Shown piece by piece: positions 3,259-50,688 of a stretch of DNA of 64,000 nucleotides. The position numbers and the translations under genes were made by a program. The notes under the pieces were generated by a model. That model had not been told where the DNA came from, did no database searches, and saw only the letters and a list, made by a program, of their open reading frames with translations. This DNA is from a virus: the IMG/VR virus record IMGVR_UViG_3300015371_000003, positions 1-64,000 of that record. One strand, written 5' to 3'. Each line of letters opens with the position of its first letter. The first letter of the stretch is position 1.

Positions 3259-3337
3259 CGGCGACGGGCGGGATGTGATCGTCATATCTCGCCCCCTTTG
3301 ATCTTGAGGTATACTGGCCGCTCAAGGGAGTGGGGTC

Positions 3338-3976
3338 ATGGCCTTCGAACGCTTCGTCTCTCTCGGTGAAGAACGCTTTGATAAAATCATCAATGCCCTG
3401 ACGCGGGGCACGCCTGCCCTTCGACTTGCGAGGGAAATTCAGCAGCAACCACCCGAAGGGTGGGGGTTGTTTCAGGACGTAGCCGAATCGTCGCTGATGG
3501 TGCAACTCTGCCGCCTCCGTACGGCGATTGCCGAAGGCGTCTTCAGCAAACGCATCGCAAAGCAGTTGGCCGCAGGGACCAATACCCCCAAGTTGGGGAC
3601 GCTGCAACGAGTGTCCGTCCAAGTCTTGAGTCGTATGGAGGATCTGGCGGATCAGCACAAACAGCGCGTTGAGAATTTTCTGCTCAAAGAGAAAACCCAA
3701 CCCCTCCCATCCAGAACGATGACGGAAGCGATGACCGAATATCGGGAGACGTTGGAACGCATCCAGAAGATTCGGTTCGAACTAGGGTTGGACGAATACA
3801 AAGGCCCAACAGGGAGCAGCACCACCATCCGAGGCGCTTCGCAGACCACGATGTTTCCGGACGGCATGAGCGTACAGAAACAGGTGTTCGAAGCGGTACA
3901 GACCGTGGAGAAGATTCTGGATGCCCGGAAGATTCCTCGCCGCCCGGATCGTCTTGGCTTGAATCCGACCGAATAG
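3338..3976 (+). CDS. putative terminase small subunit
   Basis: Abuts TerL; helical/coiled-coil 212 aa. Positional inference only. Confidence 0.5.
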   Translation: MAFERFVSLGEERFDKIINALTRGTPALRLAREIQQQPPEGWGLFQDVAESSLMVQLCRLRTAIAEGVFSKRIAKQLAAGTNTPKLGTLQRVSVQVLSRMEDLADQHKQRVENFLLKEKTQPLPSRTMTEAMTEYRETLERIQKIRFELGLDEYKGPTGSSTTIRGASQTTMFPDGMSVQKQVFEAVQTVEKILDARKIPRRPDRLGLNPTE

Positions 3977-5977
3977 ATGCTCATTTTCAAGCGGGGGGAA
4001 TCGTGGGTCGAGCAGACCAATCAAGCCCATCTTGATTTGGTCAATGAGCGGGCGTACGCCTACCTCAAGGAATATCTGGGCTACCAAGAAGCCGAGAAGA
4101 TTTGGTTTCAAGGCCAAAGGATCCATGATCTGCACGAGCGGTCGATGTTTTATGCGAATGCCGTGCTGCATGTCGAGGAGCGGTTGCAAGGGCACGAGTC
4201 TACCGCGATCCAAGATTGGGGGCAGTATCGGTGGAAGCCTGTGGGGATCCGAGAATTCATTTGCAGTTCCCACTATCTCAATAAAGAACAGGAAATCTAT
4301 CCCGGCGTGCTGGAAGCGGCGGAAGAACTGAATAACGGCCAGTACGTCGAAGCCATCATGACCGGGGGTATCGGATCGGGGAAGACCACGCTGGCGCTCT
4401 ACACAAATGCTTACCAGTTGTATCTCCTTTCGTGTATGCGCTCCCCCCACAAGCAGTTTGGGCTGGACCCTAGTTCAGAAATCCTGCTGGTCTTCCAGAG
4501 CATGACGCTCCAACTCGCCAAAGGCGTTGATTATCAACGCTTCCGGAGCATGATTGAGGGAAGTGCGTACTTTCCGAAGTATTATCCTTTCGACAAGCAT
4601 CTCACGAGCAAGCTGGTGTTCCCGAACCGGGTAGAAGTCGTGCCTGTGGCCGGAACGGAAACTGCCGCAATTGGTCAGAACGTCATGGGCGGGTTGATCG
4701 ATGAGTTGAACTACATGGCCGTTGTCTCCAAGTCCAAAGTGGCGGTGGACAAGGGGACGTATGATCAAGCGGTTCTCCTCTACAATTCGATTGCCCGCCG
4801 CCGCAAAAGCCGGTTCATGGAGAACGGCAAACTCCCCGGCATTCTCTGTCTCGTGTCTTCGAAGAAGTATCCCGGCCAGTTTACCGATCAGAAGGTGCTG
4901 GAAGCCCAACGCGACAAAACCATCTTCGTCTACGACAAGCGGGTGTGGGATACCAAGCCCGATGACTTCGGGAACCAAGGCTGGTTCTCGGTCTTTGCGG
5001 GGGATCTGACCCGCAAGCCCCGCATTCTGGATGACGAGGAGGTGGTGCAGGATGATGACCGCTCCCTCGTGGTGGCCGTGCCGGAGGAGTTTCGACTCGA
5101 ATTTGAGAAGGATGTGATCAACGCCCTGCGAGAGATTGCGGGCGTCTCTACTCTTGCGAGACATCCCTTCTTCCTTGAAGTCAACAAGGTGCATCTGGCG
5201 TTCACGCCGAGGGAATCCATTTTCTCGCAACCGGTGGTGGATTTTGTCGATCAACGACTCACCCTCCTGAAGCGCAATTTTTGGAATCCGGAAATCCCCC
5301 GCTTCGCCCATTGTGACTTAGCCCTGACGGGCGATAGCGCAGGACTCGCCATCGGCACCGTGAGTGGCTTCAAGAGCGTATCGAGCGATCCGAAGCAGCC
5401 CGCGTATATGCCGAAGATTCACGTGGATGGGGTGCTCGAAATCCGGCCTCCCAAGAACTGTGAAATCCTCTTGGGGAAAATTCGAGAGGTCATCATTGTC
5501 CTGAAGCGCATGGGCCTGAACATCATCTGGGTGACGTTCGATCAGTTTCAATCCAGTGATAGTCAACAGATTTTGCGGCAGCAGGGGTTGATCACTGGTC
5601 ATCAAAGCATGGATGAAATCCCGAATCGCCCCTACGATTTTACCAAGACCGCTGTCTACGAAGGCCGCATGGACATTCCCATCGCTCCCAAATTGCAGAT
5701 GGAAATGTTGATGCTGGAGAAGGATGTAAAGACAGGCCGAGTCGATCATCCTCCCGGTGCGAGCAAGGACTTATCAGACGCCTTAGCGGGGATTACGTTT
5801 GGCTTGACGATGCGGCGGGAGCTATGGGGACTCTACAGAATCCCGGTTCTCATGATTCCGCAGTCTGTCTATGCCTCTGCCGATAAGTTGAAGAAGCCGG
5901 AGTCTCAACCCACCTACCAGAGCGAAGCGGAGTTGAGTCTGGTGATGCAGGACGGCGCACGCGAAACGCCGCTCTAA
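3977..5977 (+). CDS. terL: terminase large subunit
   Basis: Walker A GGIGSGKT, Walker B GLIDELN, RNase H-like AHCDLA, C-terminal VDHPPGASKDLSDA. Confidence 0.92.
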   Translation: MLIFKRGESWVEQTNQAHLDLVNERAYAYLKEYLGYQEAEKIWFQGQRIHDLHERSMFYANAVLHVEERLQGHESTAIQDWGQYRWKPVGIREFICSSHYLNKEQEIYPGVLEAAEELNNGQYVEAIMTGGIGSGKTTLALYTNAYQLYLLSCMRSPHKQFGLDPSSEILLVFQSMTLQLAKGVDYQRFRSMIEGSAYFPKYYPFDKHLTSKLVFPNRVEVVPVAGTETAAIGQNVMGGLIDELNYMAVVSKSKVAVDKGTYDQAVLLYNSIARRRKSRFMENGKLPGILCLVSSKKYPGQFTDQKVLEAQRDKTIFVYDKRVWDTKPDDFGNQGWFSVFAGDLTRKPRILDDEEVVQDDDRSLVVAVPEEFRLEFEKDVINALREIAGVSTLARHPFFLEVNKVHLAFTPRESIFSQPVVDFVDQRLTLLKRNFWNPEIPRFAHCDLALTGDSAGLAIGTVSGFKSVSSDPKQPAYMPKIHVDGVLEIRPPKNCEILLGKIREVIIVLKRMGLNIIWVTFDQFQSSDSQQILRQQGLITGHQSMDEIPNRPYDFTKTAVYEGRMDIPIAPKLQMEMLMLEKDVKTGRVDHPPGASKDLSDALAGITFGLTMRRELWGLYRIPVLMIPQSVYASADKLKKPESQPTYQSEAELSLVMQDGARETPL

Positions 5978-6016
5978 ACGCTGCCTTCTGCCGTTTCAGT
6001 GGCGGCAGGAGCGGGG

Positions 6017-6057: not shown

Positions 6058-6058
6058 A

Positions 6059-6507: not shown

Positions 6508-6840
6508 ATGGCCCGCATTATTAAGGGTGTGAACAGGTGGGGTAAGCCACACACGTGCAAGTGGGGTAATCCAGAAGGTGGGCCTCGTTTTTATCAGTAT
6601 GGTTTGAAACGGTCTGAGTTTGAGGCGTTGCTCAAAAAGCAAGAAAACAGGTGTGCTATTTGTCGGTGCGAGTTTGATTCGAGTGTGTCTCGGGCACGAC
6701 CGCATGTGGATCATGACCATTCAACCAAACAGGTGCGCGGACTGCTTTGTCACAGATGTAATGTAGGACTAGGGTTTTTTGGGGACAGCGTTGAGTTTTT
6801 GAAGAAGGCCGCTGAATATTTGCAATCAAGTGCCATTTGA
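6508..6840 (+). CDS. endonuclease VII-like nuclease
   Basis: YGL...LL..Q..RCAIC...HVDHDH....VRGLLCHRCNVGLG. Confidence 0.9.
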   Translation: MARIIKGVNRWGKPHTCKWGNPEGGPRFYQYGLKRSEFEALLKKQENRCAICRCEFDSSVSRARPHVDHDHSTKQVRGLLCHRCNVGLGFFGDSVEFLKKAAEYLQSSAI

Positions 6841-6865
6841 CAAACGCGGTGGGTGGTGCTATACT
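6837..6865 (+). promoter_or_regulatory. sigma70-type promoter, representative of ~20 copies
   Basis: TTGACA-17-TATACT. Other -35 boxes at 7458, 9776, 10632, 11399, 12825, 13090, 14264, 21472, 25895, 26077, 27812, 40189, 40265, 42900, 43491, 45403, 50636, 62315. Confidence 0.85.
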
Positions 6866-6893
6866 GTATGAAGCTCAGGGAGGAGCACAACGA

Positions 6894-7145
6894 ATGGCTG
6901 TCAGGTTCCCCGTCAAGTTCGACAAGAAGACCCGTAACGCGGTGGCGAAGGCCAGCGACGGTGGTCCATCGCTTGGCACGTGGCTGAGCCGCATCGAAGC
7001 GATTCAGAACCCGGTGCTCGGGCAGGCCATTGATGGCATCTGGTGTGGCCGGTCGGGAGAAGCCCGTCTGGATCTGCCGGAGAGCAATTCACTGCTGTGC
7101 GTCGGGTGGTATCACGGGCGTGTGGAGTGGTCCTACATTTCCTGA
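6894..7145 (+). CDS. hypothetical protein
   Basis: Promoter plus GGAGG RBS in a hairpin. Confidence 0.7.
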   Translation: MAVRFPVKFDKKTRNAVAKASDGGPSLGTWLSRIEAIQNPVLGQAIDGIWCGRSGEARLDLPESNSLLCVGWYHGRVEWSYIS

Positions 7146-7327: not shown

Positions 7328-7494
7328 TGATGAAGATCCTCTGCCCCGAGTGCCATCAGCACATCTGTCCGAGTGTGATCATTTCCCACTTGTACTGGAA
7401 ACATCGGTGGACCCGGACCAAGGCGAAACTGTTCAAATGGCGGATGCTGGTAGGCGATTGACAGGGGGCAGGCGGTCCATTACACTGCGAGGTC

Positions 7495-8625
7495 ATGGCC
7501 CTCCTGTTCATGGATTCGTTCGATCACTACGCCACCGCTGATATCCTCTCCAAGTGGTCAGGATTGAGTACGGGGGGCGGGGCGTCGGCGGGGACGATAG
7601 CCTCAGGCGGGCGGCACAGTTCGAACGCGCTCTCTCTCCAATCCGGGAATAATTCCGCCCAAGCAGGAGCGTACTACTACACTCAACTTCCGGTGAGTGG
7701 GACCACCATGATTTGTGGCGTGGCGGTCAATCCGGGGGACTTCAGTGGGTTCACCACCGGTTCCAATCCCGAAAGCGGATCGTTCGATGCGTTCAGCCGC
7801 AATAGCTGCACGATTGCGGTGGCGATTCGGCAGGCGGGGCAGACGCAAGCCTTCCTTCGACTCAATTCAGACGGCACCGTGAGTGCCTTTGTCGGGAATG
7901 CCACCTTCGGGGAGAACGGGGTGTTGCTCGGCACGTCGTCCGCGACGTTGACGGCGAATGCGTTTAATTTCCTCGAAGTGAAGATTACCGTCCACAACAC
8001 GGCGGGCGTGTTCATTGTTCGTTTGAATGGGAATCCGACGCCCATCATCAACCTCTCAGGAGTGGATACCCAAGCGACGGGCACAGCCGCATGGGATAGT
8101 TTCCGGCTCGGGCGCACCTCGACTAATGCGTCGGTGAATCGCGTGTGTCTCTACGACGATCTGTATGTGCTGGATGGCTCCGGCTCAGGACCGTGGAATG
8201 ATTTCTTGGGAGATTGCCGCGTTGATACTCGTGTGCCGACAGGTGCAGGGGCTACGACGCAGTGGACGCCTTCCGGTGGAGCGAATTACGCCGCCGTGGA
8301 TGAAATTCCCCCCAACGGAGACACCGATTACGTGTCCGCGTTGACGGCTCCGGCCACGGATACCTACGTGGTGCAAGACGCCGCAGTTCCGGCCATCATC
8401 TATGGCGTGCAACAGTGTCTCAATGCGAAAAAGACGGATGCGGGCGCGTGTTCACTGGCTCCGGTGGTGCGAGTGGGAGGGGTGGATTACGTGGGGGCGG
8501 ATTTCTTTCCGGCCACGGGGTACGGGTACGGGTATCAAATTCTGGCTCAGAATCCCGCCACCGCTGCTCAATGGGTGTTAAGTGAATTCAACGCCGCAGA
8601 GTTTGGCGTGAAGCGCACGCTGTAA
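7495..8625 (+). CDS. putative virion beta-rich (minor tail/adhesion) protein, paralog 1
   Basis: MALLFMDSFDHY N-terminus, G/S/T-rich, WTPS.G.NYAAVDE..P..DTDYV; paralog of the next ORF. Confidence 0.6.
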   Translation: MALLFMDSFDHYATADILSKWSGLSTGGGASAGTIASGGRHSSNALSLQSGNNSAQAGAYYYTQLPVSGTTMICGVAVNPGDFSGFTTGSNPESGSFDAFSRNSCTIAVAIRQAGQTQAFLRLNSDGTVSAFVGNATFGENGVLLGTSSATLTANAFNFLEVKITVHNTAGVFIVRLNGNPTPIINLSGVDTQATGTAAWDSFRLGRTSTNASVNRVCLYDDLYVLDGSGSGPWNDFLGDCRVDTRVPTGAGATTQWTPSGGANYAAVDEIPPNGDTDYVSALTAPATDTYVVQDAAVPAIIYGVQQCLNAKKTDAGACSLAPVVRVGGVDYVGADFFPATGYGYGYQILAQNPATAAQWVLSEFNAAEFGVKRTL

Positions 8626-9750: not shown

Positions 9751-9843
9751 ATTCGTTGCAACCAATTGCACCGAGTTGACAAACGTTTTCAGTCGTGTTA
9801 GACTGGTTCTCACATGCCCCAAGGAGTGGGGCGGGAGGAATCT

Positions 9844-10053
9844 GTGGCTCGATACCGCAAGCACAATCATTACTGCGCGGCCAAAGGCTGCAAGAACGTC
9901 ATTGCGACGTGCTCGGCTCCGCAGGACGACGGCTCCCCGCATTGCTGCGAGGATGAGGAGCATTTTCACTGGACGCTCTGCGACGACTGTGAAGAAGTGC
10001 GGTCGGCGGCGGAGGAGGCGGATCGGCATCAGGATCTGATCGAGGCCGCATAA
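9844..10053 (+). CDS. small Cys-rich protein
   Basis: GGAGG before GTG 9844; multiple Cys pairs. Confidence 0.55.
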   Translation: MARYRKHNHYCAAKGCKNVIATCSAPQDDGSPHCCEDEEHFHWTLCDDCEEVRSAAEEADRHQDLIEAA

Positions 10054-10891
10054 TGCCCATGCTGTTCCAAACGCCGAAGAAACCTAAGCCGTTTCTGTGG
10101 TTGTATTACGAGACGGCGGGGGACGGCATGTACGATCTGAAGCTGTTCAAGTCAGAGGAGTCTGCCGAAGCCCACAAGAAGAAAATCGCCAACGGCTACG
10201 GGAAGGTGGAGAAGATCGAGGTGAACGACTAATGCCCATTCGAACACGAGTGGCCGTGCTCCGGAACAGCTACAACGGCGAATATCTGACCATGACAGGC
10301 CGATGGACGATGACTCGGGAACGAGCGATGCGGTTCCAAGTCTCTGATGGGGTGTTCGTGCAGGCCCAACTCCGCTCCCGCAATTTCGAGAGTCCCTACA
10401 AGGGCTTGACCCTCGAATGGTTGCCCAAGCGTCCACGGCATACGTATGCCTCTGCCGCAGACGTGGCGGCGTTTTTGGACGCGATTGTGCTTCGGGGGCT
10501 GGAAGCAGAACGGGATCGGTATCTCAGGCTGGTGGAGGCGTGTCAACAGCAGGCCATACATGCTCGCACGCGGGCTGAGGAAATGGCTCAAAAAGCCAAA
10601 GCGATTCAGATGCGGTTGGCGTCCATGTCACTTGACAAATCCAAGTGATTGTGTCATACTGACATCATGAATCCTCAAGCATGGCGGGAGTCGTTCACCA
10701 ACAATGCGGCGGATCTGCTCCAAATCTATCGATGGGCGGATGCGATGACGGATGAGGAATTCAAGCATCTGTTGCTGGTAATCTTCAAGCGGAGCATCAA
10801 GCGCAAAGCCCTCAAAATCAACGAACGAACCGTGCAATGGGCACTGGCGGCACGGGAACAGGTCAAGACTGAGCTACGGGGAGACGCATGA
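10053..10891 (+). other. cluster of small hypothetical genes (10053-10232, 10232-10648, 10667-10891)
   Basis: TAATG-coupled ORFs; the last starts 6 nt after a -10 box (leaderless). Confidence 0.6.
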
Positions 10892-11470
10892 GCGACCGGT
10901 TGACCAAACGACTCGATCACTTCATGGATATGTGGCTGTCGAAAGCCGCACAGAAAGAATTCGTCAAGCTGGTGGAGGCGGTGCATCACCAAGCCCGAAA
11001 AGAGACGGAAGACTGGATTGCAGAGCGGCGGAAGGAATTAGGGGTGCGGTGAGGGGGTGAAGTCTTGACACCGTTGGGGAAATCTGTCTGATAAAATTAT
11101 GAGATTCGTCCCTATCGCTTTCAACCAGATCGGTCGGCACGGCTCCCCCTGCCGTATCTCGTACGTCAATTGTTGCCTGACGGACGTGGGTGGGTGGTCC
11201 ATCGTGCGCCTTCCATTGGGTGTGCGCTGAGTTGGGCACACGCCTTTCAGGAGAAGATGCCACCTCTCTGGATTGAATACCGGGACAAGCCTGCCTACCG
11301 CAATACGGTGGAAATGAAGGCTCGACTACGCCGATTGCAGCGTAAACACGCCAATCGTGCGGACATTATCCGCTTATTGGAGAAGGAGTTACAGGGGCTT
11401 GACAAATCACCCACGGGGTGATAGACTGGTTCTTGTCAGTTCAACCCGGCTCATGGAGGAGACAGCACAG

Positions 11471-11962
11471 ATGACCACGAAGGAACATGCGGCGGCGATT
11501 CGGCAGGCGTACAAAGCCAAGGGCTGGACGGCCCGCGATATCTCCGTCCGGATCCATCTCTACTCGATGGGATCGTCCATCTACGTCGTGATCAAGAACC
11601 CGGACGTGCCCTTCAAGGTGGTGGAAGACATCGCCAACGGCGCGGAGTCGATTCGTCGGTGCGAGTATTCCGGGGAAATCCTCTCTGGCGGCAACCGCTA
11701 CGTCCACGTCAACTACTCCTCTGAAGCCCGCGCTACCATTCACGCCAATTACGCGGGGGTGCTGACGGATGCGGCCCGTGCTCTGGGAGCCAATCCCAAC
11801 GACAACAGTCTCCACGAGATTGGGGACACCGGTTTCCTGCTTGGCAAGGGCACCAACGGCTACGGCTTCAGTTTGTGGAAAGACAGCCACATTCAGGCGG
11901 CGAACGAAGCGATTCATCTGGCGACCACGTTGCACACCCGTCTGCAATCAGTTGCCAAGTGA
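11471..11962 (+). CDS. LPD29-like (large polyvalent protein-associated) domain protein
   Basis: AAAIRQAYK...ISVR...YSMGSSIYV matches my recollection of the LPD29 pattern. Confidence 0.6.
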   Translation: MTTKEHAAAIRQAYKAKGWTARDISVRIHLYSMGSSIYVVIKNPDVPFKVVEDIANGAESIRRCEYSGEILSGGNRYVHVNYSSEARATIHANYAGVLTDAARALGANPNDNSLHEIGDTGFLLGKGTNGYGFSLWKDSHIQAANEAIHLATTLHTRLQSVAK

Positions 11963-11965: not shown

Positions 11966-12838
11966 ATGCCTTGCACCCATCCGAAGCGACTGCACGAGAC
12001 GCGAGAGGCGGCGTTAGAGCACGTCAAGTCGCTACTCTGGCGCAATCAGGTGGAGGGACACCCGGAACGCTCCTATCGTCTGGGTGTCTACCCCTGCGAT
12101 CAATCACCGGGCTGGCACGTGGGGCATGCTCATGGGACGCCACCCGTCTACCACTACACCTTCGGCTCTAAGCTGGATGCGATTCTGGCGGCGGATAAAT
12201 TGCGAGTCCCCTCGGATGCGCGACGAACGAAGCGTCAGCGGCAGATCGAACCGGAACCCCTCTTGTGGTTCTCCCGCAACCCGGAGTGGGAATTCTCCGT
12301 GTTCAAGGCCAGAAAAGAGATGTTTGGGCACCGGTATACGTGGCGGACCTTGAATGAAATCGTGGCGCAGGGGCTGGTCCGCTTTGCGGTTCCGGCAGTG
12401 TATGCCAAGCTGCGCTGGCCGGATTACGTGGAACGCAATCGAGTCCCCTCGATTGAACGGGATGCGATGGCTCTCTATGGCAATCCGACTGAGTGGTTAG
12501 CCACCGATGAGGATGTGCCGTTGGACGTGTGTTGTCGAGCAGGCGATAGCGGCGTCCAAGTGTTCTACCGAGGGGAATGGGTGAACGTGGCGGATGTCGA
12601 TGAGGCGGCGTATGATGCCTATCTCAAGGATCGTCCGGATGCCTACGCCAAGGCCGAAGCCTCTCTCTGGAAGAAGGTGGAGGCCGCAGAAGCAGCCAAC
12701 ACAAGCAAGATGATGTTGACCACGGATGAAATGCTCATCGCGGCGGATGTCGATCACGAGTGTCGGCGGGATGAGGGGATGGAGGTGTTGAAAAAGCGGC
12801 TGAAGGCCCAACGGCAGAAGGCATTTGACAAACTCTGA
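11966..12838 (+). CDS. hypothetical protein, possible ADP-ribosyltransferase fold
   Basis: VYHYT...IL...L...LLWFS spacing resembles ART strands 1 and 2; N-terminal YPC..GWH module. Confidence 0.4.
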   Translation: MPCTHPKRLHETREAALEHVKSLLWRNQVEGHPERSYRLGVYPCDQSPGWHVGHAHGTPPVYHYTFGSKLDAILAADKLRVPSDARRTKRQRQIEPEPLLWFSRNPEWEFSVFKARKEMFGHRYTWRTLNEIVAQGLVRFAVPAVYAKLRWPDYVERNRVPSIERDAMALYGNPTEWLATDEDVPLDVCCRAGDSGVQVFYRGEWVNVADVDEAAYDAYLKDRPDAYAKAEASLWKKVEAAEAANTSKMMLTTDEMLIAADVDHECRRDEGMEVLKKRLKAQRQKAFDKL

Positions 12839-12859
12839 GGATTGTGTCATACTAGGGGT

Positions 12860-13072
12860 ATGTTGATCACCTTGAAGATTCGGTTGGAAGCGTTCCACAA
12901 GCCCACGGAGACGTGGCACGTCCACGAGGCGCAGCACGGGGTCCGTGCGGTGTCGCGCAAGCACGCGATTAGTAAAGGGCTGAAGGTGCTCGAAAGCTGG
13001 CCGGGGTATGCGGATCGGCAGGACCATCCGGAGTGGACGGTGGGCGGCGACGTGACCATCGTGAACGACTGA
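12860..13072 (+). CDS. hypothetical protein (leaderless)
   Basis: ATG 6 nt after the CATACT -10 box. Confidence 0.6.
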   Translation: MLITLKIRLEAFHKPTETWHVHEAQHGVRAVSRKHAISKGLKVLESWPGYADRQDHPEWTVGGDVTIVND

Positions 13073-13159
13073 CGTGCAATCGTGTGCAGTTGACAAATCC
13101 CACGGCGGGTGCTATACTAGTCTTGTCAGTCGGTGATGTGCCCATAGGAGGGGCCAGCA

Positions 13160-14267: not shown

Positions 14268-14326
14268 CAAACCCTCCCCGGTTTGCTACACTAGGGGAGT
14301 CGAATTTCTCAAGGAGTGAGAGCACA

Positions 14327-40332: not shown

Positions 40333-42312
40333 ATGGAGTTTGTTTCCTTCGGATTCACGAACGATGAGGCGGCTGGTTCCCCGGAACTATTGGGGGGCAA
40401 GGGCGCGGGCCTCTTGTGGCTGTCACGGCAAGGGGTGCCGGTGCCACCCGGATTCGTGATTCCTACGTCCGTCTGGGCGGAGTACGACAAAAAGCCGAAG
40501 TCCACGATGAAGGCGATTGCCAAGGCATTGCCGGTCTATCTGAAGCAACTCGACGCCTACTTCGGGTACCGTCCGCTTCTTTCCGTCCGCTCGGGTGCCC
40601 GTGTCTCGTGCCCCGGCATGATGGATACGATCCTCAACGTGGGGATCGACGGCGATACCACGGCGGAATGGCTCAAGCGGTTGGGTCCGACGTGCTTCGG
40701 GGATAGCTTCAAGCGGCTGGTCCAGATGTACGGGTCCGTCGTCAAGGGGCTTCGCAAGGAAATCTTCGACGGGGATCTGAAGACGGCCCTCGACGTGTAT
40801 CAGGCCAAAACGGAGCAGGCGTTTCCGGACGCTGAAGCCCAACTCCTTGGAGCCATCGAAGCGGTGTTCAAGTCGTGGGATAACGACCGGGCGGAGGAGT
40901 ACCGCAAGATGCACGGGTACGACCGGGCGTGGGGAACGGCGGTCACGGTGCAAGCGATGGTCTTCGGGAATCTGAACGACCAGAGCGGAACCGGCGTGCT
41001 GTTCACGCGCAACCCGAATACCGGCGACAACGAAGTCACGGGCGAATATCTCCGCAACGCGCAGGGGGAAGATATCGTGGCCGGGATCCGGACCCCGGAG
41101 CAGTTGCACGAGTTGCCGTTTGATTTCGGCGTGCCCTTGCATTCGGATCTTCTGGATCTGGTCAAGAAACTCGAAACGCTCAAGCGGGAAATGCTCGACA
41201 TCGAATTCACGATTCAGAACGGCAAGCTGTATCTCTTGCAGGTTCGCAGTGGCAAGCGCACGGCTATTGCCGCCCTGAAGATTGCGGTGGATCTGACGAA
41301 GCAGGGGTTGATCGATGCTCAAACAGCGGTGAGCCGGGTATCGCCCCGTGAATTCGATTTGGCGCAGGAAACGATACTGGATCCGGCGTTTACGACGGTC
41401 CCGGCATTTCAGGGGATCGGAGCCAGCAACGGGATCGTCAGCGGCGTGCCGGTGTTCACGAAGGAAGACGCCATCGAAAGCAAGGTGCCCTGCATCCTCG
41501 TGCGAGAAGAAACGACGCCGGAGGATATCAAGGGAATGAATGCGGCGGCGGGCGTGCTGACGATGAAGGGGGGCTTCACGTCGCATGCGGCGGTGGTGGC
41601 CCGTCAGATGAATCGGGCGTGCGTCGTCGGGCTGGAGCAGTCGGTGGAAGCGTTTACGAATGTCGAAGTCATCAGCCTTGACGGAGCCACGGGCCGGGTG
41701 TGGACCGAAAAGGTGCCGGTCATCAGCGGGCAGACCAACGGCGTGGTCAAGGATTTCACGGCAATGGTCTACTCGACACTGAACGGGGTCATCCCGATTG
41801 TGTTCGACGTGCCCACGGTGCCGGTCAACGAAGCGTTGCTCTATCTGGGGGATCAGATTCTGCATCCGGAGCAGGCGATTCAGACGGTGTTGCTCTCGTT
41901 GTCAAAGGTGCAGCGGCTGTATCTGGATCTGGTCCCAAGCGAGGAGGAATCACGGTTCCTCAAGCTGGTGGCGGCTCACAAGGTGACGGAGCGGTTTCTG
42001 GAAGCCTTGTCTCAGGTGCTGCCGAAGCATCACCCGCTGTTTTCTCGGTTGGTGGTGGTGGTCAAGCCGGGAGTGACCGTGGCGTTCTCGCACATGGTGG
42101 CGGGCGCGGATCTGCGGTCCCTCGTGCTGTCGGATACGGAAGTGATTCTGGACGGCGTGGATACGCTGGACCCGGCGATTCAGCGGGTGCTGGCGTGGAA
42201 GCTGGCGCAGGGGCTGTCGGCGGTGTCTATCGGCGCGTATGTGCCGGAGGCCAAGTCCATGTTGAGCGTGTCTCAAGCGTTGCAATTGATTGCCAACGGG
42301 AAGGGGGCATGA
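40333..42312 (+). CDS. PPDK-like dikinase (ATP-grasp plus phospho-His domain) with non-PPDK C-terminus
   Basis: LGGKG, SVRSGA..SCPGMMDT, QGEDIVAG, DIEFT, LQVR, TTPEDI, GGFTSHAAVVAR; no pyruvate-binding TIM barrel. Confidence 0.9.
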   Translation: MEFVSFGFTNDEAAGSPELLGGKGAGLLWLSRQGVPVPPGFVIPTSVWAEYDKKPKSTMKAIAKALPVYLKQLDAYFGYRPLLSVRSGARVSCPGMMDTILNVGIDGDTTAEWLKRLGPTCFGDSFKRLVQMYGSVVKGLRKEIFDGDLKTALDVYQAKTEQAFPDAEAQLLGAIEAVFKSWDNDRAEEYRKMHGYDRAWGTAVTVQAMVFGNLNDQSGTGVLFTRNPNTGDNEVTGEYLRNAQGEDIVAGIRTPEQLHELPFDFGVPLHSDLLDLVKKLETLKREMLDIEFTIQNGKLYLLQVRSGKRTAIAALKIAVDLTKQGLIDAQTAVSRVSPREFDLAQETILDPAFTTVPAFQGIGASNGIVSGVPVFTKEDAIESKVPCILVREETTPEDIKGMNAAAGVLTMKGGFTSHAAVVARQMNRACVVGLEQSVEAFTNVEVISLDGATGRVWTEKVPVISGQTNGVVKDFTAMVYSTLNGVIPIVFDVPTVPVNEALLYLGDQILHPEQAIQTVLLSLSKVQRLYLDLVPSEEESRFLKLVAAHKVTERFLEALSQVLPKHHPLFSRLVVVVKPGVTVAFSHMVAGADLRSLVLSDTEVILDGVDTLDPAIQRVLAWKLAQGLSAVSIGAYVPEAKSMLSVSQALQLIANGKGA

Positions 42313-42572
42313 TGGCTCTAAGCATTGGGGTGTCAGTCGGGAGTAAGATAGATATTGGCGGGCATGTTCTTCAGGTGAAATCACTCGCCCCACCGAATAT
42401 CGTGGTCATCACGATAGATCGTGGGGAGGAGATTGTCATCAGTGAGGGCAAGTCGGTGGAAATTCTGCCGGGGGTCAAGGTGCAATCAGGCTCCGGCGGC
42501 AACCGGCTGGCCTTCCATGCAGCGAAGTCGATTCGGATTTCACGGATGGGGGAAGCCTTTCAAAAGGGTTGA
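42309..42572 (+). CDS. CsrA/RsmA-like protein (divergent, with internal insertion)
   Basis: MALSIGVSVGSKIDIG... and RLAFHAAKSIRISR resemble CsrA MLILTRRVGE.L.IG and VRIG..APK.V.V.R. Confidence 0.55.
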   Translation: MMALSIGVSVGSKIDIGGHVLQVKSLAPPNIVVITIDRGEEIVISEGKSVEILPGVKVQSGSGGNRLAFHAAKSIRISRMGEAFQKG

Positions 42573-42576
42573 ACAG

Positions 42577-42903
42577 ATGCAGATCAGTCCTAAAGTCATG
42601 CGCGTGCTCCAAGCGGAGAAGATTCCTGCTGAGGAACTGTACCGCATGCTGGATGACGTGGCGTTCACGTCGATTCGTGGATGCAACCGGCGGTACTTCC
42701 AGTGGTTGTTTCTCGTGAAGGATAATGTCCTTCAGGATATGCAGCGGCTGGATCTGGTGCAAGTCGGGAAAGGCCAGAACCGCATGCTGGAGGAGCACGA
42801 AGCATGCGACGGCGAAGGCTGTCGGGAGTGCGGGTGGGTAGGCAGTATTTCACGGGCCGTAAACGACGTGACGGCCACGATGATCCAGTCCGCAGGGTTT
42901 TGA
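42577..42903 (+). CDS. hypothetical protein with C-terminal Cys motif
   Basis: CDGEGCRECGW. Confidence 0.6.
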   Translation: MQISPKVMRVLQAEKIPAEELYRMLDDVAFTSIRGCNRRYFQWLFLVKDNVLQDMQRLDLVQVGKGQNRMLEEHEACDGEGCRECGWVGSISRAVNDVTATMIQSAGF

Positions 42904-42955
42904 CAAACGACCAGTAGTTGTGCGATACTAGATACCTCAAAGGAGTGAGGCTCAG

Positions 42956-43489
42956 ATGGCTTTAGGGCAGTTACGGCTACCAGTGAACAAGCGGCAGTAC
43001 TTCGTGGTGACGGGAGGCCCGTTCCACGAGTGTCCGCCCAACATGCAGGGCGTCAAGATGGCGAAGGAAATCAAGCAGGCGTGTGCCGTGGACATTCCCA
43101 CGGCTGATTTCCAGACGCCGGATCGGTTGGTGCTCTATCGTGGGCTGCACAAAGCCCTCGATTTGGTGCTGGCCGGGGAACCCCTGTATGTGGGGTGCAT
43201 GGGCGGCAAGGGGCGGACGGGGCTGTTTCTGGCCGTGCTGGTCAAAGCCTTCGGGGTCAAGAAACCGGTGGAATTCGTGCGGGCGAACTACTATGCCCAT
43301 GCGGTGGAGACGGATGAGCAAATGGCGTTCGTCCGGAAGTTCACCATTACGCCCCCGATGCGGCGGAAGATCAAGCGGCTTCGGCGGTGGTCGTGGCTCC
43401 GGTTCTGGAAGCGGAACCTGACCCGTCTCCCGGCTCCGGAAGGGGAGAAGCAGGCACCGGCCATGCGGAAGGTGGCCGGAGGCCGGTGA
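42956..43489 (+). CDS. PTP/dual-specificity phosphatase-like protein
   Basis: IPTADF.TP, YVGCMGGKGRTG (CX5R), AVET.EQ. Confidence 0.85.
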   Translation: MALGQLRLPVNKRQYFVVTGGPFHECPPNMQGVKMAKEIKQACAVDIPTADFQTPDRLVLYRGLHKALDLVLAGEPLYVGCMGGKGRTGLFLAVLVKAFGVKKPVEFVRANYYAHAVETDEQMAFVRKFTITPPMRRKIKRLRRWSWLRFWKRNLTRLPAPEGEKQAPAMRKVAGGR

Positions 43490-43559
43490 TTTGACAAACG
43501 CCCACGGTTGGGTGTATACTGGTTGAGTCAGTGGGGAGTCTCAAGGGAGTGAGCAGATC

Positions 43560-44675
43560 ATGAAGTTTCGTCCGACCAACACATTGGCGTATTTCAATGC
43601 CGCGCCCCAGACGCATCTGCATGATCTGTCGGATCTGCCGATTGCGGTGCTGGCGGAGGCCACGAAGAAGTACCGGGAGACGTGCGGCACTGTCTCGCCC
43701 AATGACGGCGCGGTGACGTTCTACACGCTGAACCATTGTGCGTCGATTGTGCGAAAGCTGTTCACGCCCCATGAAACGCTGCCGGAGTGGGCGCGGGTCA
43801 TCATGCAGACCTATACGACCGTTTGCATGGATCAGGGTGAGCGGATGCTGCACTACATCCTGAGTATCACCACACGGGAAATGCGTCATGTGTCCTCCTC
43901 GAAAGAGGCGCTGTGGAACGGCATGACGAAAGAGGCCGGAGCAGCGGTCGCACAGTTCATCAAGGGGAACTGCGCCAACGGGGAAGATTCGGCGGTGTCG
44001 AAGTACATGAACAATCCGCCGAATGCGACGGTGGGGCAGTACATCGGCGGCATGGCGTACGGGTTCTGGAATGGGTGGGGGAAGTACACCCCGGAGACAA
44101 TGGAGAATTGGAGCGGCGGCTACGGTGGCCCGACGTGGGCACTTGTGGCGGAAGCGGCTCGGGCCATGCTGACGGGCACCACGTCAATGGAAATGCTGGT
44201 GGACACGGGCTATACGCTGGCCCACAACGGTGGTCCCATTTTCAACAAGGGGATGATGTACACCCACTACGACAGTCATTTCCTGACGATTCTGGATTTA
44301 CAGCGGGCGGGTCAGATGCTGGATCTGCTGACCGGGACCAATTTGCATGGGATCAAGAAGACGCCTGAAGCGGTGGCGGCGGTGGCAGCGATTCAGCAAC
44401 CCGAGGCACAGCAGGCGATTGAAACGTTTCTGCCGGGAGAGGTGATTTTCAAGGGGTACATCGATTGGAAGCTGGTGGATGATCTTCGCCCGGATAAGTC
44501 GAAGAACCCCGGCAAGTATCACGCGCAGATTCACGCGCAGGCGCAGCCTACGGCGACGGTGAAGCCGAAGCCGAAGACGATCAAGTTTCACGGGAAGAAG
44601 GCCAAGGCAGTCGGGGAATTTCTGGTCTATCCCAAGCAGACGGTCAAGATTATCGAACGGACGGGGGGCAAGTGA
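43560..44675 (+). CDS. hypothetical protein (YGG..W, D....LAHNGGPIFNKG motifs)
   Basis: Own promoter and hairpin SD; conserved-looking polar motifs, function unknown. Confidence 0.7.
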   Translation: MKFRPTNTLAYFNAAPQTHLHDLSDLPIAVLAEATKKYRETCGTVSPNDGAVTFYTLNHCASIVRKLFTPHETLPEWARVIMQTYTTVCMDQGERMLHYILSITTREMRHVSSSKEALWNGMTKEAGAAVAQFIKGNCANGEDSAVSKYMNNPPNATVGQYIGGMAYGFWNGWGKYTPETMENWSGGYGGPTWALVAEAARAMLTGTTSMEMLVDTGYTLAHNGGPIFNKGMMYTHYDSHFLTILDLQRAGQMLDLLTGTNLHGIKKTPEAVAAVAAIQQPEAQQAIETFLPGEVIFKGYIDWKLVDDLRPDKSKNPGKYHAQIHAQAQPTATVKPKPKTIKFHGKKAKAVGEFLVYPKQTVKIIERTGGK

Positions 44676-45406
44676 TGGCGTGGGAAGACTGGAAGTCCAA
44701 GAAGCAGTCGGCGGACACGGCGTTCGCAGGCACGGCGTACTCGGTGCGGTGTTACGAGTCACACCCCGTGCTCAAGATCGGCAAGGGCAGGCTCTATGGG
44801 GGTAGTGCTCGCAACCCGGTGAAGGAGATGGACGTGTATGTGGTCCTTCAGAACGGGGATCAGGGCGGGCGGCAGTCGGATCCGTGGGACAAGCAGGCAG
44901 TCACGGAAATCTACTACGGCATCAACGACATGCACGCGCCGTCCAACGTGGCCCGGTTCAAGAAGCTGGTGACGTGGATTTGCACTCAATTGCAGGCGGG
45001 CAAGAAGGTCCACGTCGGCTGTATCGGTGGGCATGGACGAACCGGCACGGTGCTCTCCGCCATCATCGCGGAGGCGTTGAAGGAGAAGGATGCGATCCAG
45101 TGGGTGCGGAAGCACTACTGCAAGAAGGCGGTGGAGTCCAAGGATCAAGTCGCGTTCCTGATGAAGCATTACGGGGTGACGCAGGCCAAGGCGACGAAGG
45201 ATTACACGGGGTTGCTCCGGCGAGACAGCATTGAACCGGTCAGGACGGCGGGTCAAATGCCGTTGCTCCAACCGTCGTGGGTGAACACCCCGGTGGGTCA
45301 GGTGAAGTCAGGGACCACGAAGCGGGCGGTGCCGGAGAAGGCCACGAAGTCGTATGGCCCCATGGCGTCCGTCCGGAGTCTGTGGAAGCCCAAGCGGGGG
45401 ATTTGA
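44675..45406 (+). CDS. PTP/dual-specificity phosphatase-like protein
   Basis: INDMHAP, HVGCIGGHGRTG (CX5R), AVES.DQ. Confidence 0.85.
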   Translation: MAWEDWKSKKQSADTAFAGTAYSVRCYESHPVLKIGKGRLYGGSARNPVKEMDVYVVLQNGDQGGRQSDPWDKQAVTEIYYGINDMHAPSNVARFKKLVTWICTQLQAGKKVHVGCIGGHGRTGTVLSAIIAEALKEKDAIQWVRKHYCKKAVESKDQVAFLMKHYGVTQAKATKDYTGLLRRDSIEPVRTAGQMPLLQPSWVNTPVGQVKSGTTKRAVPEKATKSYGPMASVRSLWKPKRGI

Positions 45407-45474
45407 CAAATCCCTAGCCCGGTGCTATACTGGATGCCGGTCGAGTAAACTTTAGCTCAAGGGAGTGGGCAGCA

Positions 45475-46434
45475 ATGGCAGTGAAACTTAGTTCCGAAGC
45501 ACAGTTGGTGTTCTTCAACCAAATCTTCGGGTCAACCCATCCGGTGGTCGGACAGGCCAAAGCCCTGTTGCAGTCCGGGGTCACGTTCGAAGTCGGTCTG
45601 TACGAGATACAGGCGCATGTCGGCGGCAAGCTGTTGACCAGTCTCAAGCTGACCTATGGGACCACGCCACTGATGAAGGGGCAGGCCAATTCGGTGGTGC
45701 TCGGTCACAACAAAGCCCTCATCGAAGGGTGGGTGGAGGGGGTGTTCAAGAAGCAGGGATCCCCGGCGGTGTATGCGGCGGCGGTGGCTCCGAAGGCTCT
45801 GGTATCGGTGGTGCTCACGGGCGTCTCGGCTCTCGTGGGATCGGTGCTCCCGCTGATCAAGGTGGTTAATGAAGCAATGGGAACCACGGGCACCCTCAAG
45901 GATGCCAAAGCTGCCGTGGACAAGGCCAAGGATGGCATTGCGTCGGTCATCGGTTCGTTTTCGCCCGCTGATGCGGCAACGTTGGCGGCGGCACTGCAAG
46001 CCAAAGGTGGACAGGTGACGGTTGGGGGTGTGGCACCGAAGCCGGTGTTTGCTCCGCAACAGCCGGTGGCCTACAACGCGGCGAAGGTGGATGCCGTGAT
46101 CGATTTGAAAGCGGCGGCGGCACTCGGCCAGAAGGTGCATGGGACCAGTACGGGCAGCGTCTACTACTGCATTGCGATGACGGAGCACGTCAAGGTGGCG
46201 GCACGGCTGACCGCCGGAGGTTCTGTCTCCATTCGCGTGGAGTGGACGGACAATCCGAAGGATGATCTGAAGAAGCTGACGGAGGCCGGGGTCATCATGA
46301 AGCAGGGGTATGGCTCCATCCATTTCGATGCCGAGAACGTGCCCATGCCGCGAGTCGTCGGCGCGTTTCTTCTGGGCACCGGCATCAACTGGAAGCAGAT
46401 CGTCACCAACGGTGCGGAACTGGTGGTGGCGTGA
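45475..46434 (+). CDS. protein with internal ribosomal bL12 (L7/L12) C-terminal-like domain
   Basis: VSVVL...LIKVVNEAMG..GTLKDAKAAVDKA...SPADAATLAAALQAKGGQVTV. Confidence 0.6.
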   Translation: MAVKLSSEAQLVFFNQIFGSTHPVVGQAKALLQSGVTFEVGLYEIQAHVGGKLLTSLKLTYGTTPLMKGQANSVVLGHNKALIEGWVEGVFKKQGSPAVYAAAVAPKALVSVVLTGVSALVGSVLPLIKVVNEAMGTTGTLKDAKAAVDKAKDGIASVIGSFSPADAATLAAALQAKGGQVTVGGVAPKPVFAPQQPVAYNAAKVDAVIDLKAAAALGQKVHGTSTGSVYYCIAMTEHVKVAARLTAGGSVSIRVEWTDNPKDDLKKLTEAGVIMKQGYGSIHFDAENVPMPRVVGAFLLGTGINWKQIVTNGAELVVA

Positions 46435-50100: not shown

Positions 50101-50276
50101 CCCTCATGAACTACGTGCCGGAGGATCGGGTGGATGAGATTGTGACGCGCCAACTGGACCAAATGGAATCGTTACCCTTTGAGAAAGTAGGTTGGCAACC
50201 TCAATTGACGTTTGTTGCGGATGCAAGAGTAGGAAAAAATTGGGGGGATATGACGAAATTCAAGAGGAAGAAATGA
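47085..50276 (+). CDS. polA: family A DNA polymerase (UDG-like N-terminal remnant, 3'-5' exonuclease, intein)
   Basis: DLETLG, NFKYD, YAGGD; TGRLS; DYGQGELR (A), KAGNFGLCFG (B), HDS (C). Confidence 0.93.
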   Translation: MLTIWTKGLPNKVLQAFSPVLRSVPHLPVHVVSDFTVPAGTKTILALGGDSLKQLQTEKVIAKNRTITAYRTLPQMRGGVPVLISYDSSIGEIDYGYHVDLLTDVTLAIRFCLTGNWKPAYGKYRYVPDFAELCTSIEQQHKATGKPVDVAKDLETLGLDPYALPSLNPLYPGAYIVTMQATHQAGTADVVRFSNREHETERLQDQTLREQIEFLLRCPYVRLKGANFKYDLHWLWKRGGFTCSTFCFDTTIVGSLLDENRSNSLDTHTKIYVPSLGGYADVFNATVDKSRMDQVPPDQLLPYAGGDVDADLQVAAAQKSELLRDKQLTSFYVNILHPAARAFEWVEQGGVLVDLPAFQELKADLEQEHQRLVKEACKIMGGRIVAKHGYMVDPGGFNLTKASMLCDFMFSPMGLNLKPQMYTAKPDKDGIKRPSTAMEHLEMFAEVPEAKAFVEIIREDSGVMKTYNTYVVGFLEHLRSDGRFHPTYYLFVGNRDDGEGGAKTGRLSCKAPAFQCCVGETEVVTNQGSRCIDWLVEQRGAGLHVLSHTGQWQPIVDVHRNGVQPVFRVSTVSGRAIDCTANHPLLTPVGWVRTDQLVVGDRCYVTRTPHATLHESDVLLVERDEESLLVEDIERLVQVWGAWDQSVPSVDDLRRLLEQHGREAGEGMVYRAERRKRELRTGQLLLGDIEGAGQQSSEYQMDYIREQDADRGAVGAGVRDFQRPVALPALDWPSDGASTDEDYPPDRSVFQEDCIVSIEPVGERETFDLTIEGSHSFIANGIAVHNTVPKHTKYAQRIRRCYPAPPGYVVVERDYGQGELRVIACVAHETGMLAVFKAGRDIHADTAAPFSGFTYEKLMALEATDPHTFEETRQLGKAGNFGLCFGMKEDGFVIYARVNYGVNLSWDEAHDFRNGFFKKYPQLLVYHEWAKSYARQHKFIRTPLGRLRHLPLIKSPNREVAAKAERQAINSPIQGCLTDMGLWTIALEQQSGLAEIAPCFGACHDSLMNYVPEDRVDEIVTRQLDQMESLPFEKVGWQPQLTFVADARVGKNWGDMTKFKRKK
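48630..49442 (+). mobile_element. intein (271 aa) in DNA polymerase
   Basis: AFQ|CCVGETEV...CTANHP...TFDLTIEGSHSFIANGIAVHN|TVP; splicing restores a PAFQTVP motif. Confidence 0.92.
48895..49368 (+). CDS. HNH homing endonuclease overprinted in the +1 frame inside the intein
   Basis: YYSW.AMKNRC...YGGRGIKVC..W..F..F...MG...SIER.D.NGNYEPGNC.WAT..EQ..NRR; GGGGGA 8 nt upstream. Confidence 0.88.
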   Translation: MSLGHRTQHYTSPTYYSWSAMKNRCLSKTSKDWSKYGGRGIKVCPQWMTFEGFLNNMGEKPGKGWSIERKDVNGNYEPGNCYWATLKEQGSNRRNTKWITFENKTQTEAQWAREYGISRGRLHYRLSIGLPMEQALMKTTRPTGVSSKKTASFLSNQ

Positions 50277-50662
50277 AGGGCATCCACAGCATGACCTTGG
50301 CAGAGCGAATCATAGCTAAGACTAAAGTGAACGAGAACGGGTGTCGGCTGTGGCAGGAGTCCTTACTGAAGGACGGCTATGCGCTGATTCGGTACAAAGG
50401 GAAAAAAATTACCGTGCATCGGGCGGCGTGGATGGCTTTCAAAGGTCCAATTCCAGACGGCATGTCGGTGTTGCATTCGTGTGATATTCGACATTGCACG
50501 GCTGAGGAGCATTTGTTTTTAGGAACCTATGCTGATAACTCGAAAGATGCTGTGACGAAAGGGAGACAAAAGAATTTATTTCCGAGTGGTGATCTGCATC
50601 CGAATAGGATTAAAAAACTCAAGAAATTGCAGCGGTTGACAAGACTGAGAGAGTTGGGTTAG
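50273..50662 (+). mobile_element. free-standing HNH endonuclease
   Basis: GC.LW...DGY...VHRAAW...GPIPDG..VLHSCD...C....HLFLGT..DN..D...KGR; lower GC; ATGA overlap with pol stop. Confidence 0.88.
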
Positions 50663-50688
50663 ACTAGGTTCCTGTCAATGGAGTGATG

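Follow-up and report, generated by a model that had tools for sequence, protein, structure and literature searches.

Hairpins that display the Shine-Dalgarno sequence behind the promoters of a soil phage, and a divergent CsrA-like gene as their possible regulator

Genes and hairpins of the locus

The window analyzed here is a stretch of 64,000 nucleotides (positions 1 to 64,000 of IMG/VR virus record IMGVR_UViG_3300015371_000003) from a soil phage, and all of its features described below lie on the + strand. An ORF at 42309-42572 encodes a divergent CsrA-like protein of 87 aa, P0001; its relatives begin at the second ATG, 42312. The first-pass annotation had placed this ORF in an operon that itself carries a hairpin, which is the case: it begins at an ATGA that overlaps the stop codon of the upstream gene (40333-42312), the first of the operon, and the leader of that gene contains the hairpin at 40314-40327, behind a promoter at 40265-40293. 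The upstream gene encodes a PPDK-like dikinase with an ATP-grasp domain and a swivelling His domain and no PEP/pyruvate domain. Directly 3' of the CsrA-like gene, here as in all cases, is a gene for a conserved 108-aa protein with a CxGxGCxxCG motif (42577-42903); a prediction of the complex between P0001 and this downstream product (g42577) scored 0.00, which is evidence neither way. A promoter (TTGACA...GATACT) that ends at 42929 and a hairpin with a 5-bp stem at 42935-42950 then precede the gene for a DSP-type phosphatase (42956-43489). The CsrA-like gene is always found within this conserved dikinase / Zn-ribbon / phosphatase module.

Fourteen hairpins that present a Shine-Dalgarno (SD) sequence in the loop had been listed for this region, and the observation is confirmed, since all 14 are present with the letters as described. 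The hairpin at 3321-3334 has a 4-bp stem and a 6-nt A..GGAG loop and precedes the gene at 3338-3976. That at 6873-6886, with a C-G closing pair and a minimum free energy of -5.4 kcal/mol, lies between a promoter at 6837-6865 and the gene at 6894-7145, and the same hairpin recurs at 21508-21521 ahead of the gene at 21525-21755 (promoter 21472-21500). The leader of the gene at 9844-10053 (promoter 9776-9804) has a hairpin with a 6-7 bp stem and an AGGAG loop at 9816-9832, together with another GGAGG nearer to the start. Stems of 3 bp are found at 11450-11461, ahead of the gene at 11471-11962 (promoter 11399-11427), and at 26359-26370, ahead of a zinc-ribbon gene (26378-26590). The hairpin at 13140-13154, with a 4-bp G/C stem and a 7-nt loop, precedes the gene at 13160-14017 (promoter 13090-13118); an identical one at 27865-27879 precedes the gene at 27886-28920 (promoter 27812-27840). 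A 5-6 bp stem with an AGGAG loop at 14307-14321 serves the gene at 14327-14746 (promoter 14264-14292). Beyond the phosphatase gene, hairpins occur at 43540-43553, ahead of the gene at 43560-44675 (phrog_20946; promoter 43491-43520), at 45455-45470 (5-bp stem), ahead of the gene at 45475-46434, whose product has a weak match to the L7/L12 C-terminal domain (promoter 45403-45431), and at 50673-50688, where a weak stem of 4-5 bp precedes the gene at 50689-52707 (promoter 50636-50665).

Association with promoters

Most of the hairpins had been said to follow a TTGACA promoter. This holds for 12 of the 14, at 8-25 nt from a -10 element, with the promoter consensus TTGACA-N17-TAnACT. A clear -35 is absent upstream of the hairpins at 3321, which has a -10-like TATACT, and 26359, which has no clear promoter. 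When the frequencies at promoter-proximal and internal sites were compared over the whole 116,229-bp genome, as the first-pass annotation had suggested, strict hairpins (a stem of at least 4 bp and a loop of 5-7 nt with A as its first base and GGAG at its end) were found at 11 of 14 promoter-proximal sites and at 3 of 69 internal sites, that is, GGAG sequences without a promoter (Fisher p = 7e-9).

The spacing bears on the idea that the hairpins are elements of RNA processing or stability, either cleavage sites for a GGAG nuclease of the RegB kind or a form of 5'-proximal transcript protection. In T4, RegB targets the GGAG in the SD sequence of early transcripts. Three hairpins (6873, 21508 and 50673) begin about 8 nt past the -10, which places them at the RNA 5' end or close to it, but most are 12-25 nt from the -10, too distant for end protection. 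A RegB-like nuclease, offered earlier as an alternative to CsrA, found no counterpart, with no match to PF10715 at E <= 10 in the complete genome. We consider a processing function very improbable.

Form of the element

In the whole phage genome, the + (coding) strand has 20 copies of the core sequence CA-A(N0-2)GGAG-TG, of which 18 directly precede a start codon, and the - strand has one. One copy with a 5-bp stem, at 25864-25880 (+ strand), was an addition to the original list. The leaders that contain a hairpin are short, about 18-40 nt. Stems are of two types. In one, an invariant C-G and A-U pair is extended by one or two further pairs that co-vary; the other is a G/C stem with direct C-G closure. 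The alignment registers of the CA/UG and C-G classes differ. The loops seen are AGGAG, ATGGAG, AAGGAG, ACGGAG and AGGGAG, the N before GGAG being any of the four bases. Since U or C at this N breaks pairing with the anti-SD, the conserved A at the 5' side of the loop is not explained by pairing to rRNA.

These are features of CsrA-type operators. As in E. coli CsrA-glgC and P. fluorescens RsmE-hcnA, a short hairpin that overlaps the SD holds the GGA in its loop, and the loop has the form A-N-GGA-N with a free N and a conserved closing pair, CA/UG or C-G in the phage and C-G, or A-U then C-G, in the CsrA/RsmE sites. We take the A-N-GGAG loop to fit the ANGGAN recognition pattern of the RsmE-hcnA structure. 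Typical CsrA targets are dual-site. With two GGA sites 10-63 nt apart as the criterion, a second GGA was found 10-30 nt from the hairpin in 6 of 12 leaders and the hairpin site stood alone in 6 of 12; many phage targets thus differ from those of CsrA systems in being single-site.

The minimum-energy fold contains the SD-loop hairpin in 11 of 12 leaders. The hairpin at 40314, for which the minimum-energy fold favours a shifted alternative, is kept in orthologous leaders through compensatory changes. The hairpins are thermodynamically weak, and the leaders showed no excess of stability over dinucleotide shuffles (z from -1.5 to +1.6). Support for the hairpins therefore comes from their position, conservation and covariation, and not from folding energy.

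Covariation and conservation in related phages

Related loci were collected by searching with an alignment of 17 of the 115 members of the P0001 family. In 61 hexaloop instances from the 116-kb soil phage and these loci, the two pairs outside CA/UG co-vary (0.245, against 0.133 +/- 0.019 in shuffles, a value reached in 0 of 500). Pairing at the two positions was 92% and 77%, against 67% and 48% on permutation (53 instances); in more distant loci it was 79% and 55%, against 49% and 37% (47 instances). The covariation is present in the phage itself and extends to 14 close and 9 distant loci. Relatives whose polymerase is just 35-45% identical have the same design, with stems that are unrelated and close with C-G. 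We conclude that the hairpins are a selected RNA element, clade-wide, placed on the first cistron behind nearly every sigma-70-type (host-type) promoter.

A search of INPHARED with one 6-kb segment (megablast) and one 567-aa protein (tblastn) returned no relative. The clade does have a cultured member, Stenotrophomonas phage DLP5 (MG189906), which has a homologue of P0001 at 87984-88325 and 24 copies of the motif; Moby, a phage of the DLP5 host that is unrelated, has no copy on the coding strand over 50 kb. With 24 copies in the one and none in the other, the motif is no general ribosome site of that host. The core in DLP5 has no stem past CA/UG.

The element could nevertheless be a self-contained ribosome-site module that needs no dedicated protein, in which the SD is pre-organised in a loop and shielded from G-rich mRNA to give strong, context-independent initiation at the first cistron, where translational coupling is unavailable. 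The CsrA-like protein would then serve the dikinase/phosphatase module or act elsewhere, and its gene is indeed embedded in that conserved set of enzymes. The near restriction of hairpins to 5'-proximal or post-gap cistrons, internal coupled genes being without them, also agrees with such a module, as do the unpaired SD bases and stems weak enough for a ribosome to melt. It leaves unexplained, however, the invariant A that opens the loop and the free N before GGAG, the closing pairs, CA/UG or C-G, that stay invariant between phages with just 35-50% protein identity, and the absence of the motif from the unrelated phage of the same host. Furthermore, the 11-nt core persists in DLP5 with no stable stem, a sign that sequence, and not structure alone, is recognised. 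We find this explanation rather unlikely, though it is the chief competitor of regulation by the CsrA-like protein.

The hairpins might instead be sites for the CsrA/Rsm protein of the host, with early phage translation tuned to the host and the phage protein a competitor, a decoy or unrelated. Their shape is that of the canonical CsrA operator, and S. maltophilia, the host of DLP5, belongs to a group with Rsm/CsrA. Against such sites stand the lack of the motif in the unrelated phage of the DLP5 host and the cost of repressing all early first cistrons unless this were countered. In their favour, canonical csrA genes occur in other phages, and phages thus engage the Csr pathway (PMC7366521). 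On balance we judge control by host CsrA improbable.

The CsrA-like protein

The earlier description of ORF 42309-42572 as CsrA-like stands in part: a distant relatedness is likely, with its signal at the level of the family, and the protein is not a canonical CsrA. P0001 itself scored 12.7 bits (E = 0.13) against Pfam CsrA (PF02599), under the cut-off of 27, and had no NCBIfam match, TIGR00202 included. Its family comprises 192 clusters, and of 115 members examined 35 match Pfam CsrA at E <= 0.01, with 2.7e-6 as the lowest value; this agrees with a distant relatedness and not with strict CsrA membership. Alignment with nine CsrA sequences using hhalign gave 54.5% probability, on the beta4-beta5 motif. 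Residues 4-37 of P0001 align with CsrA 2-35 and residues 66-81 with CsrA 31-46, in colinear order, so that about 28 residues would be inserted between a beta1-beta4-like and a beta4-beta5-like part. The RNA-contact residues of CsrA are L2/L4, R6/R7, the A36-P37 turn, V42 and R44. The near-invariant I77 and R79 align with V42 and R44, the AP[RK] of the wider family is AAK in P0001, and the N-terminal M-A-L-S is conserved; equivalents of CsrA R6/R7 are missing. From these alignments, the family is probably CsrA-derived.

The AF2 monomer of P0001 is all-beta, with nine strands and no helix (pLDDT 86.5). The CsrA fold that the first-pass annotation had proposed to look for was not recovered: Foldseek gave no PDB match at E <= 0.001, and a wide VIA search listed generic beta sandwiches (Z 4-7.5) and no CsrA, although a single-chain model is not expected to match one chain of the swapped CsrA dimer. 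A profile of close relatives found no PDB sequence. In the ESM Atlas, the neighbours of P0001 are virus clusters, some of which bear the CsrA family.

An autoregulatory RNA site within the CsrA-like coding region was also considered, the S-I-G-V codons of the orthologues in DLP5 and locus L003 spelling the motif. In a set of 15 orthologues these codons vary without restriction; the gene is thus under no constraint at the RNA level here, and the candidate was rejected.

The CsrA-like gene and the hairpins co-occur in every related locus with enough flanking sequence. In four loci scored as lacking the gene, its position is occupied by a highly divergent homologue. The lineage of L100 and L097, the only one truly without the gene, has plain SDs behind its promoters. 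Hairpins were found in 55 of 121 promoter leaders with the gene and in 2 of 11 without it, a difference short of significance (p = 0.11, from one gene-less lineage). As gene and hairpins are both traits of the clade, their co-occurrence is not independent evidence.

Comparison with known systems

CsrA is a protein of about 55-75 residues with five beta strands and a C-terminal alpha helix, whereas the phage protein has 87 aa, the insert and no helix, and falls under every curated CsrA cut-off. Both are small and beta-rich, with a beta4-beta5 motif of the R..AP[KR]x[IV]x[IV]xR type, and the site in the operon of the phage protein recalls CsrA autoregulation. The Csr regulon covers host metabolism; the putative regulon here consists of the phage's own promoter-proximal genes. 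An Rfam scan of the window gave no match of any kind, and no sponge RNA like CsrB or RsmZ was found. CsrA-family regulators are likewise found on other mobile elements, with canonical csrA alleles in F116-like Pseudomonas phages and Vibrio phages and RsmQ on plasmid pQBR103 (Sobrero and Valverde 2020, PMC7366521; PMC9928087). Unlike P0001, their products are ordinary CsrA proteins with a length of 55-70 aa and 55-90% identity to host CsrA. Host mRNAs are their presumed or demonstrated targets, and neither paper describes for these alleles a corresponding group of cis sites in genes of the element (PMC7366521; PMC9928087).

T4 RegA and RegB are also phage factors that act at the ribosome-binding regions of many early transcripts, in a post-transcriptional shut-off that is putative here. 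RegA, however, binds at the AUG to sites without structure, RegB cleaves GGAG, and neither involves a co-varying hairpin. The coat proteins of MS2 and PP7 repress translation, as is putative here, through a small hairpin that includes the ribosome-binding site or start; they differ in their unrelated fold, in the single operator per genome and in the loop, which is not formed by the SD.

A possible translational regulon

We tentatively propose, with a confidence a little short of even, that the CsrA-derived phage protein binds the SD hairpins and throttles the promoter-proximal genes. The GGAG of the SD, which ends a loop of 5-7 nt on its 3' side, presents the shape of a CsrA/RsmE operator, and the protein encoded at 42309-42572 would bind the loops in competition with the 30S subunit. 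As it accumulated, translation of the promoter-proximal early and middle genes would fall. The dikinase gene would be among the targets, and the CsrA-like ORF would be translationally coupled to it, which would give negative feedback. The effect on translation could also be activation, or a simple display of the ribosome site. Single GGA sites in half of the leaders, weak hairpins and a DLP5 core without a longer stem count against this mechanism, and the location in an enzyme module could mean a role with the dikinase or phosphatase instead.

It is possible, and somewhat doubtful, that a large clade of soil and Xanthomonadales phages of about 90-120 kb, DLP5 included, runs a private translational regulon through a remodelled (for example, single-chain) CsrA derivative with its own specificity, each early or middle transcript bearing on its first cistron an SD hairpin dedicated to this protein. 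Temporal control in phages is understood mainly as transcriptional, and to our knowledge there are few cases of genome-wide translational control by one phage protein with matched operator hairpins (T4 RegA, RegB). If the private regulon is real, it would be a post-transcriptional, genome-wide timer independent of the host Csr system. If the protein binds the loops, it would represent a new structural branch of the CsrA superfamily, and its gene would be the first of the csrA type in any phage whose set of targets in the phage's own genome is identified. As translational operators, the hairpins would be compact and portable, and the cultured phage DLP5 provides a test system in which the idea is directly testable.

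Genome organization

The window covers the opening 64 kb of an IMG/VR phage genome of 116,229 bp. This genome is complete, with direct terminal repeats, and has a G+C content of 57.6% and ~140 genes, nearly all on the + strand. The structural and lysis module is bounded by the portal gene (53860) and the endolysin (~96.7 kb), and only small early genes and DNA metabolism genes lie outside it. About 15 strong σ70-type promoters were found, almost all in the non-structural part. Searches of 50,697 deposited phage records with one 6-kb segment (megablast) and one 567-aa protein (tblastn) found no relatives.

Shine-Dalgarno hairpins

All 14 stem-loops described in the first-pass annotation, in which the Shine-Dalgarno (SD) sequence lies in an A(N)GGAG loop (for example those starting at 6873, 40314 and 43540), are present in the sequence as given. 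Promoter-proximal sites were defined as GGAG ribosome sites with a promoter within 70 nt (14 genes when the promoter pattern was loosened slightly). A hairpin was called strict when a stem of at least 4 bp enclosed a loop of 5-7 nt with A as its first base and GGAG as its last four. Strict hairpins occurred at 11 of the 14 promoter-proximal sites, compared with 3 of 69 GGAG sites without a promoter (Fisher p = 7e-9), in agreement with the earlier remark that most of them follow a promoter. With stems of at least 3 bp the counts were 13/14 and 11/69 (Fisher p = 6e-8). Most of the internal positives were preceded by an intergenic gap, and several had weaker promoter-like sequences. The most common form of the hairpin has the core CA-A(N0-2)GGAG-TG, with 20 copies on the + strand of the whole genome and one on the - strand; 18 of the 20 are located 3-16 nt upstream of a start codon.

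Of 12 leaders folded, 11 had the SD-loop hairpin in their minimum-energy structure. In folding energy, however, the short leaders were no better than dinucleotide shuffles. The hairpin is thus a weak, local element, for which the support is comparative rather than energetic. A semi-conserved word, TTGT(C/A)AGT(C/T) or GTCAGT, is found 5-12 nt past the -10 element, near the expected transcription start, in the leaders at 11428-11449, 13119-13139, 27841-27864 and 43521-43539; related loci hold similar words.

Covariation of the stems

An IMG/VR search with the CsrA-like protein encoded at 42309-42572 identified 14 close loci, and a further 10 loci at greater distance were then added. In the orthologous leaders of four genes (the dikinase, phosphatase 1 and the genes starting at 43560 and 45475), the hairpin is kept while its stem is altered by compensatory substitutions. 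Among 53 non-redundant instances, the position adjoining CA/UG was paired in 92% (67% when permuted) and the second position out in 77% (48% when permuted), with pairing at chance level beyond this. The distant loci gave 79% versus 49% at the first position and 55% versus 37% at the second. In 61 hexaloop instances, five pair types were seen at the first variable pair (50/61 paired) and six at the second (35/61 paired); the covariation score was 0.245, compared with 0.133 +/- 0.019 in shuffles, none of 500 of which reached it, and all slid controls scored lower. The claim that stem sequence varies while pairing is preserved therefore holds.

A polymerase-based search added 80 further loci. Where polymerase identity falls to 35-45%, relatives share this architecture but their stems differ widely, and the A(N)GGAG loop is closed by an immediately adjacent C-G pair. 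Such a hairpin was present in 55 of 121 promoter-proximal leaders, in at least 30 different stem combinations, and loops across this set were A-GGAG or A-N-GGAG, with any base at N. With U or C at N, pairing to the anti-SD is no longer contiguous, and rRNA pairing therefore leaves the invariance of the initial A unexplained. This A counts against, and the promoter-proximal position of the hairpins for, the main alternative to control by a bound protein, namely that the hairpin is an intrinsic module for the display or insulation of stand-alone ribosome sites; we regard this as possible, if rather unlikely.

The core motif in DLP5

The cultured Stenotrophomonas phage DLP5 (MG189906) is a member of the same wide clade. 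The core motif occurs 24 times on its coding strand, mostly behind promoter-like sequences, and is absent from its other strand; Moby is an unrelated phage with the same host, and the coding strand of its first 50 kb holds no copy. Judged from this distribution, the motif is not a generic host signal. Use of the hairpins by host CsrA seems quite unlikely. The DLP5 flanks do not extend the stem, so the feature that counts there appears to be the conserved 11-nt core. The DLP5 homologue of the CsrA-like protein is encoded by the ORF at 87984-88325.

The CsrA-like protein

The 87-aa product of the ORF at 42309-42572 had been called CsrA-like. Its own match to Pfam CsrA is marginal (E = 0.13, 12.7 bits; cut-off 27), but distant relatedness is likely at the level of its family. 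It has 50 close homologues, from metagenomes, and a profile search gave a family of 192 clusters of ~85-100 aa proteins. The family consensus is M-A-L-S-x-G-V at the N terminus and R-L-A-F-E-A-P-R-x-I-x-I-x-R at the C terminus; the latter is the beta4-beta5 signature of CsrA. Pfam CsrA was matched at E <= 0.01 by 35 of 115 family members (best 2.7e-6), and there was no recurrent match to any other family. Comparison with nine bona fide CsrA sequences by hhalign gave a probability of 54.5%. When aligned separately, residues 4-37 correspond to CsrA 2-35 (P = 7.8e-4) and residues 66-81 to CsrA 31-46 (P = 9.4e-5). The two stretches are colinear with CsrA and are separated by ~28 extra residues. 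ESM Atlas neighbours are consistent with CsrA relatedness. The expected CsrA fold was not recovered: the AF2 model is a confident (pLDDT 86.5) nine-strand all-beta monomer that lacks the CsrA helix, and CsrA was not listed among its fold-search matches. The ORF is outside the CsrA family in the strict sense, and we consider its family to be probably homologous to CsrA, that is, CsrA-derived but remodelled.

In the CsrA dimer, beta1 and beta5 from different chains jointly form one RNA-binding surface. The two best-conserved segments of the phage family are the counterparts of these strands, and by analogy the CsrA-like protein might possibly provide a single-chain version of this surface.

The enzyme module

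The CsrA-like gene always lies within one syntenic block, in the order PPDK-like dikinase, sometimes one small gene, CsrA-like gene, a Zn-ribbon-like 108-aa protein tightly downstream, DSP-type phosphatase, phrog_20946, a second phosphatase-like protein, a weak match to the L7/L12 C-terminal domain, and DNA polymerase. The module at 40333-46434 is syntenic from this phage to DLP5; its dikinase lacks the PEP/pyruvate domain, two of its products are DSP-type phosphatase-like, and one weakly matches the ribosomal L7/L12 C-terminal domain. The 108-aa protein (42577-42903), always directly 3' of the CsrA-like gene, has invariant N-R-R-Y..W.F and C-x-G-x-G-C-x-x-C-G motifs; a role as partner or antagonist of the CsrA-like protein, by analogy with FliW-CsrA, is an unsupported possibility. 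The DLP5 orthologue (90207-90995) of the gene at 44672-45406 is annotated as thymidylate synthase ThyX. The Pfam matches of the gene at 44672-45406 are to DSP-type phosphatase families, so the ThyX label of the database entry may be a mistake.

Because the CsrA-like gene is fixed in this block, gene and hairpins both characterize a single clade, and finding them together does not count as independent evidence. In pooled loci, the share of hairpin SDs among candidate sites was 122 of 1601 in loci with the gene detected and 10 of 354 in the others (p = 6e-4), with four of the minus loci mis-scored. These four were rejected as natural knockouts, as each has a very divergent CsrA-like homologue at the same place. 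The only truly gene-less lineage (L100/L097) has plain SDs behind its promoters. The leader-level difference between loci with and without the gene was not significant. Extremely divergent homologues are found between the dikinase and phosphatase 1 in loci L099, L102 and L110, from AT-rich (31-33% G+C) and GC-rich (62%) relatives; that of L110 has a more CsrA-like end, ...SAPGRLILRGEAY.

Other promoter and operator elements

A second promoter class, TTGACAAAT...TGTG(T/C)CATACT, is located at 7458-7497 (with TACACT), 10630-10669, 12824-12862 and 25895-25934. An ATG lies only 6-8 nt past its -10 element, with no SD, and these are candidate leaderless mRNAs, unlike the hairpin-led class. Another group of genes has a TGCA-N6-TGCA palindrome (TGCAATCAATTGCA-like) just 5' to the SD, for example upstream of the starts at 3115, 11966, 14067, 16757, 27481, 42309 and 60503, at 66237, 96760 and 100863 elsewhere in the genome, and at 78480-78500 in DLP5. 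This palindrome may act as an operator or as a late or middle promoter element.

Possible regulation by the CsrA-related protein

The SD hairpin is conserved, co-varying, promoter-proximal and shaped like a CsrA operator. As the first-pass annotation had stated, a hairpin of this kind (40314) also heads the operon encoding the CsrA-related protein. The ORF at 42309-42572 is translationally coupled to the hairpin-led gene. We tentatively propose that the phage protein would bind the hairpin loops and block access of the 30S subunit, which would yield a delayed shut-off with feedback. A RegB-like nuclease acting at GGAG had been offered as an alternative, and no RegB homologue was found in the complete genome; a function of the hairpins in RNA processing or stability is very improbable. 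Canonical csrA alleles were found in 88 phage records, and csrA has been reported in 30 of 2517 phages, with roles stated as unknown (PMC7366521). Phage csrA itself is thus already known; if the proposal is true, what would be new is a remodelled CsrA branch paired with SD operators across the phage.
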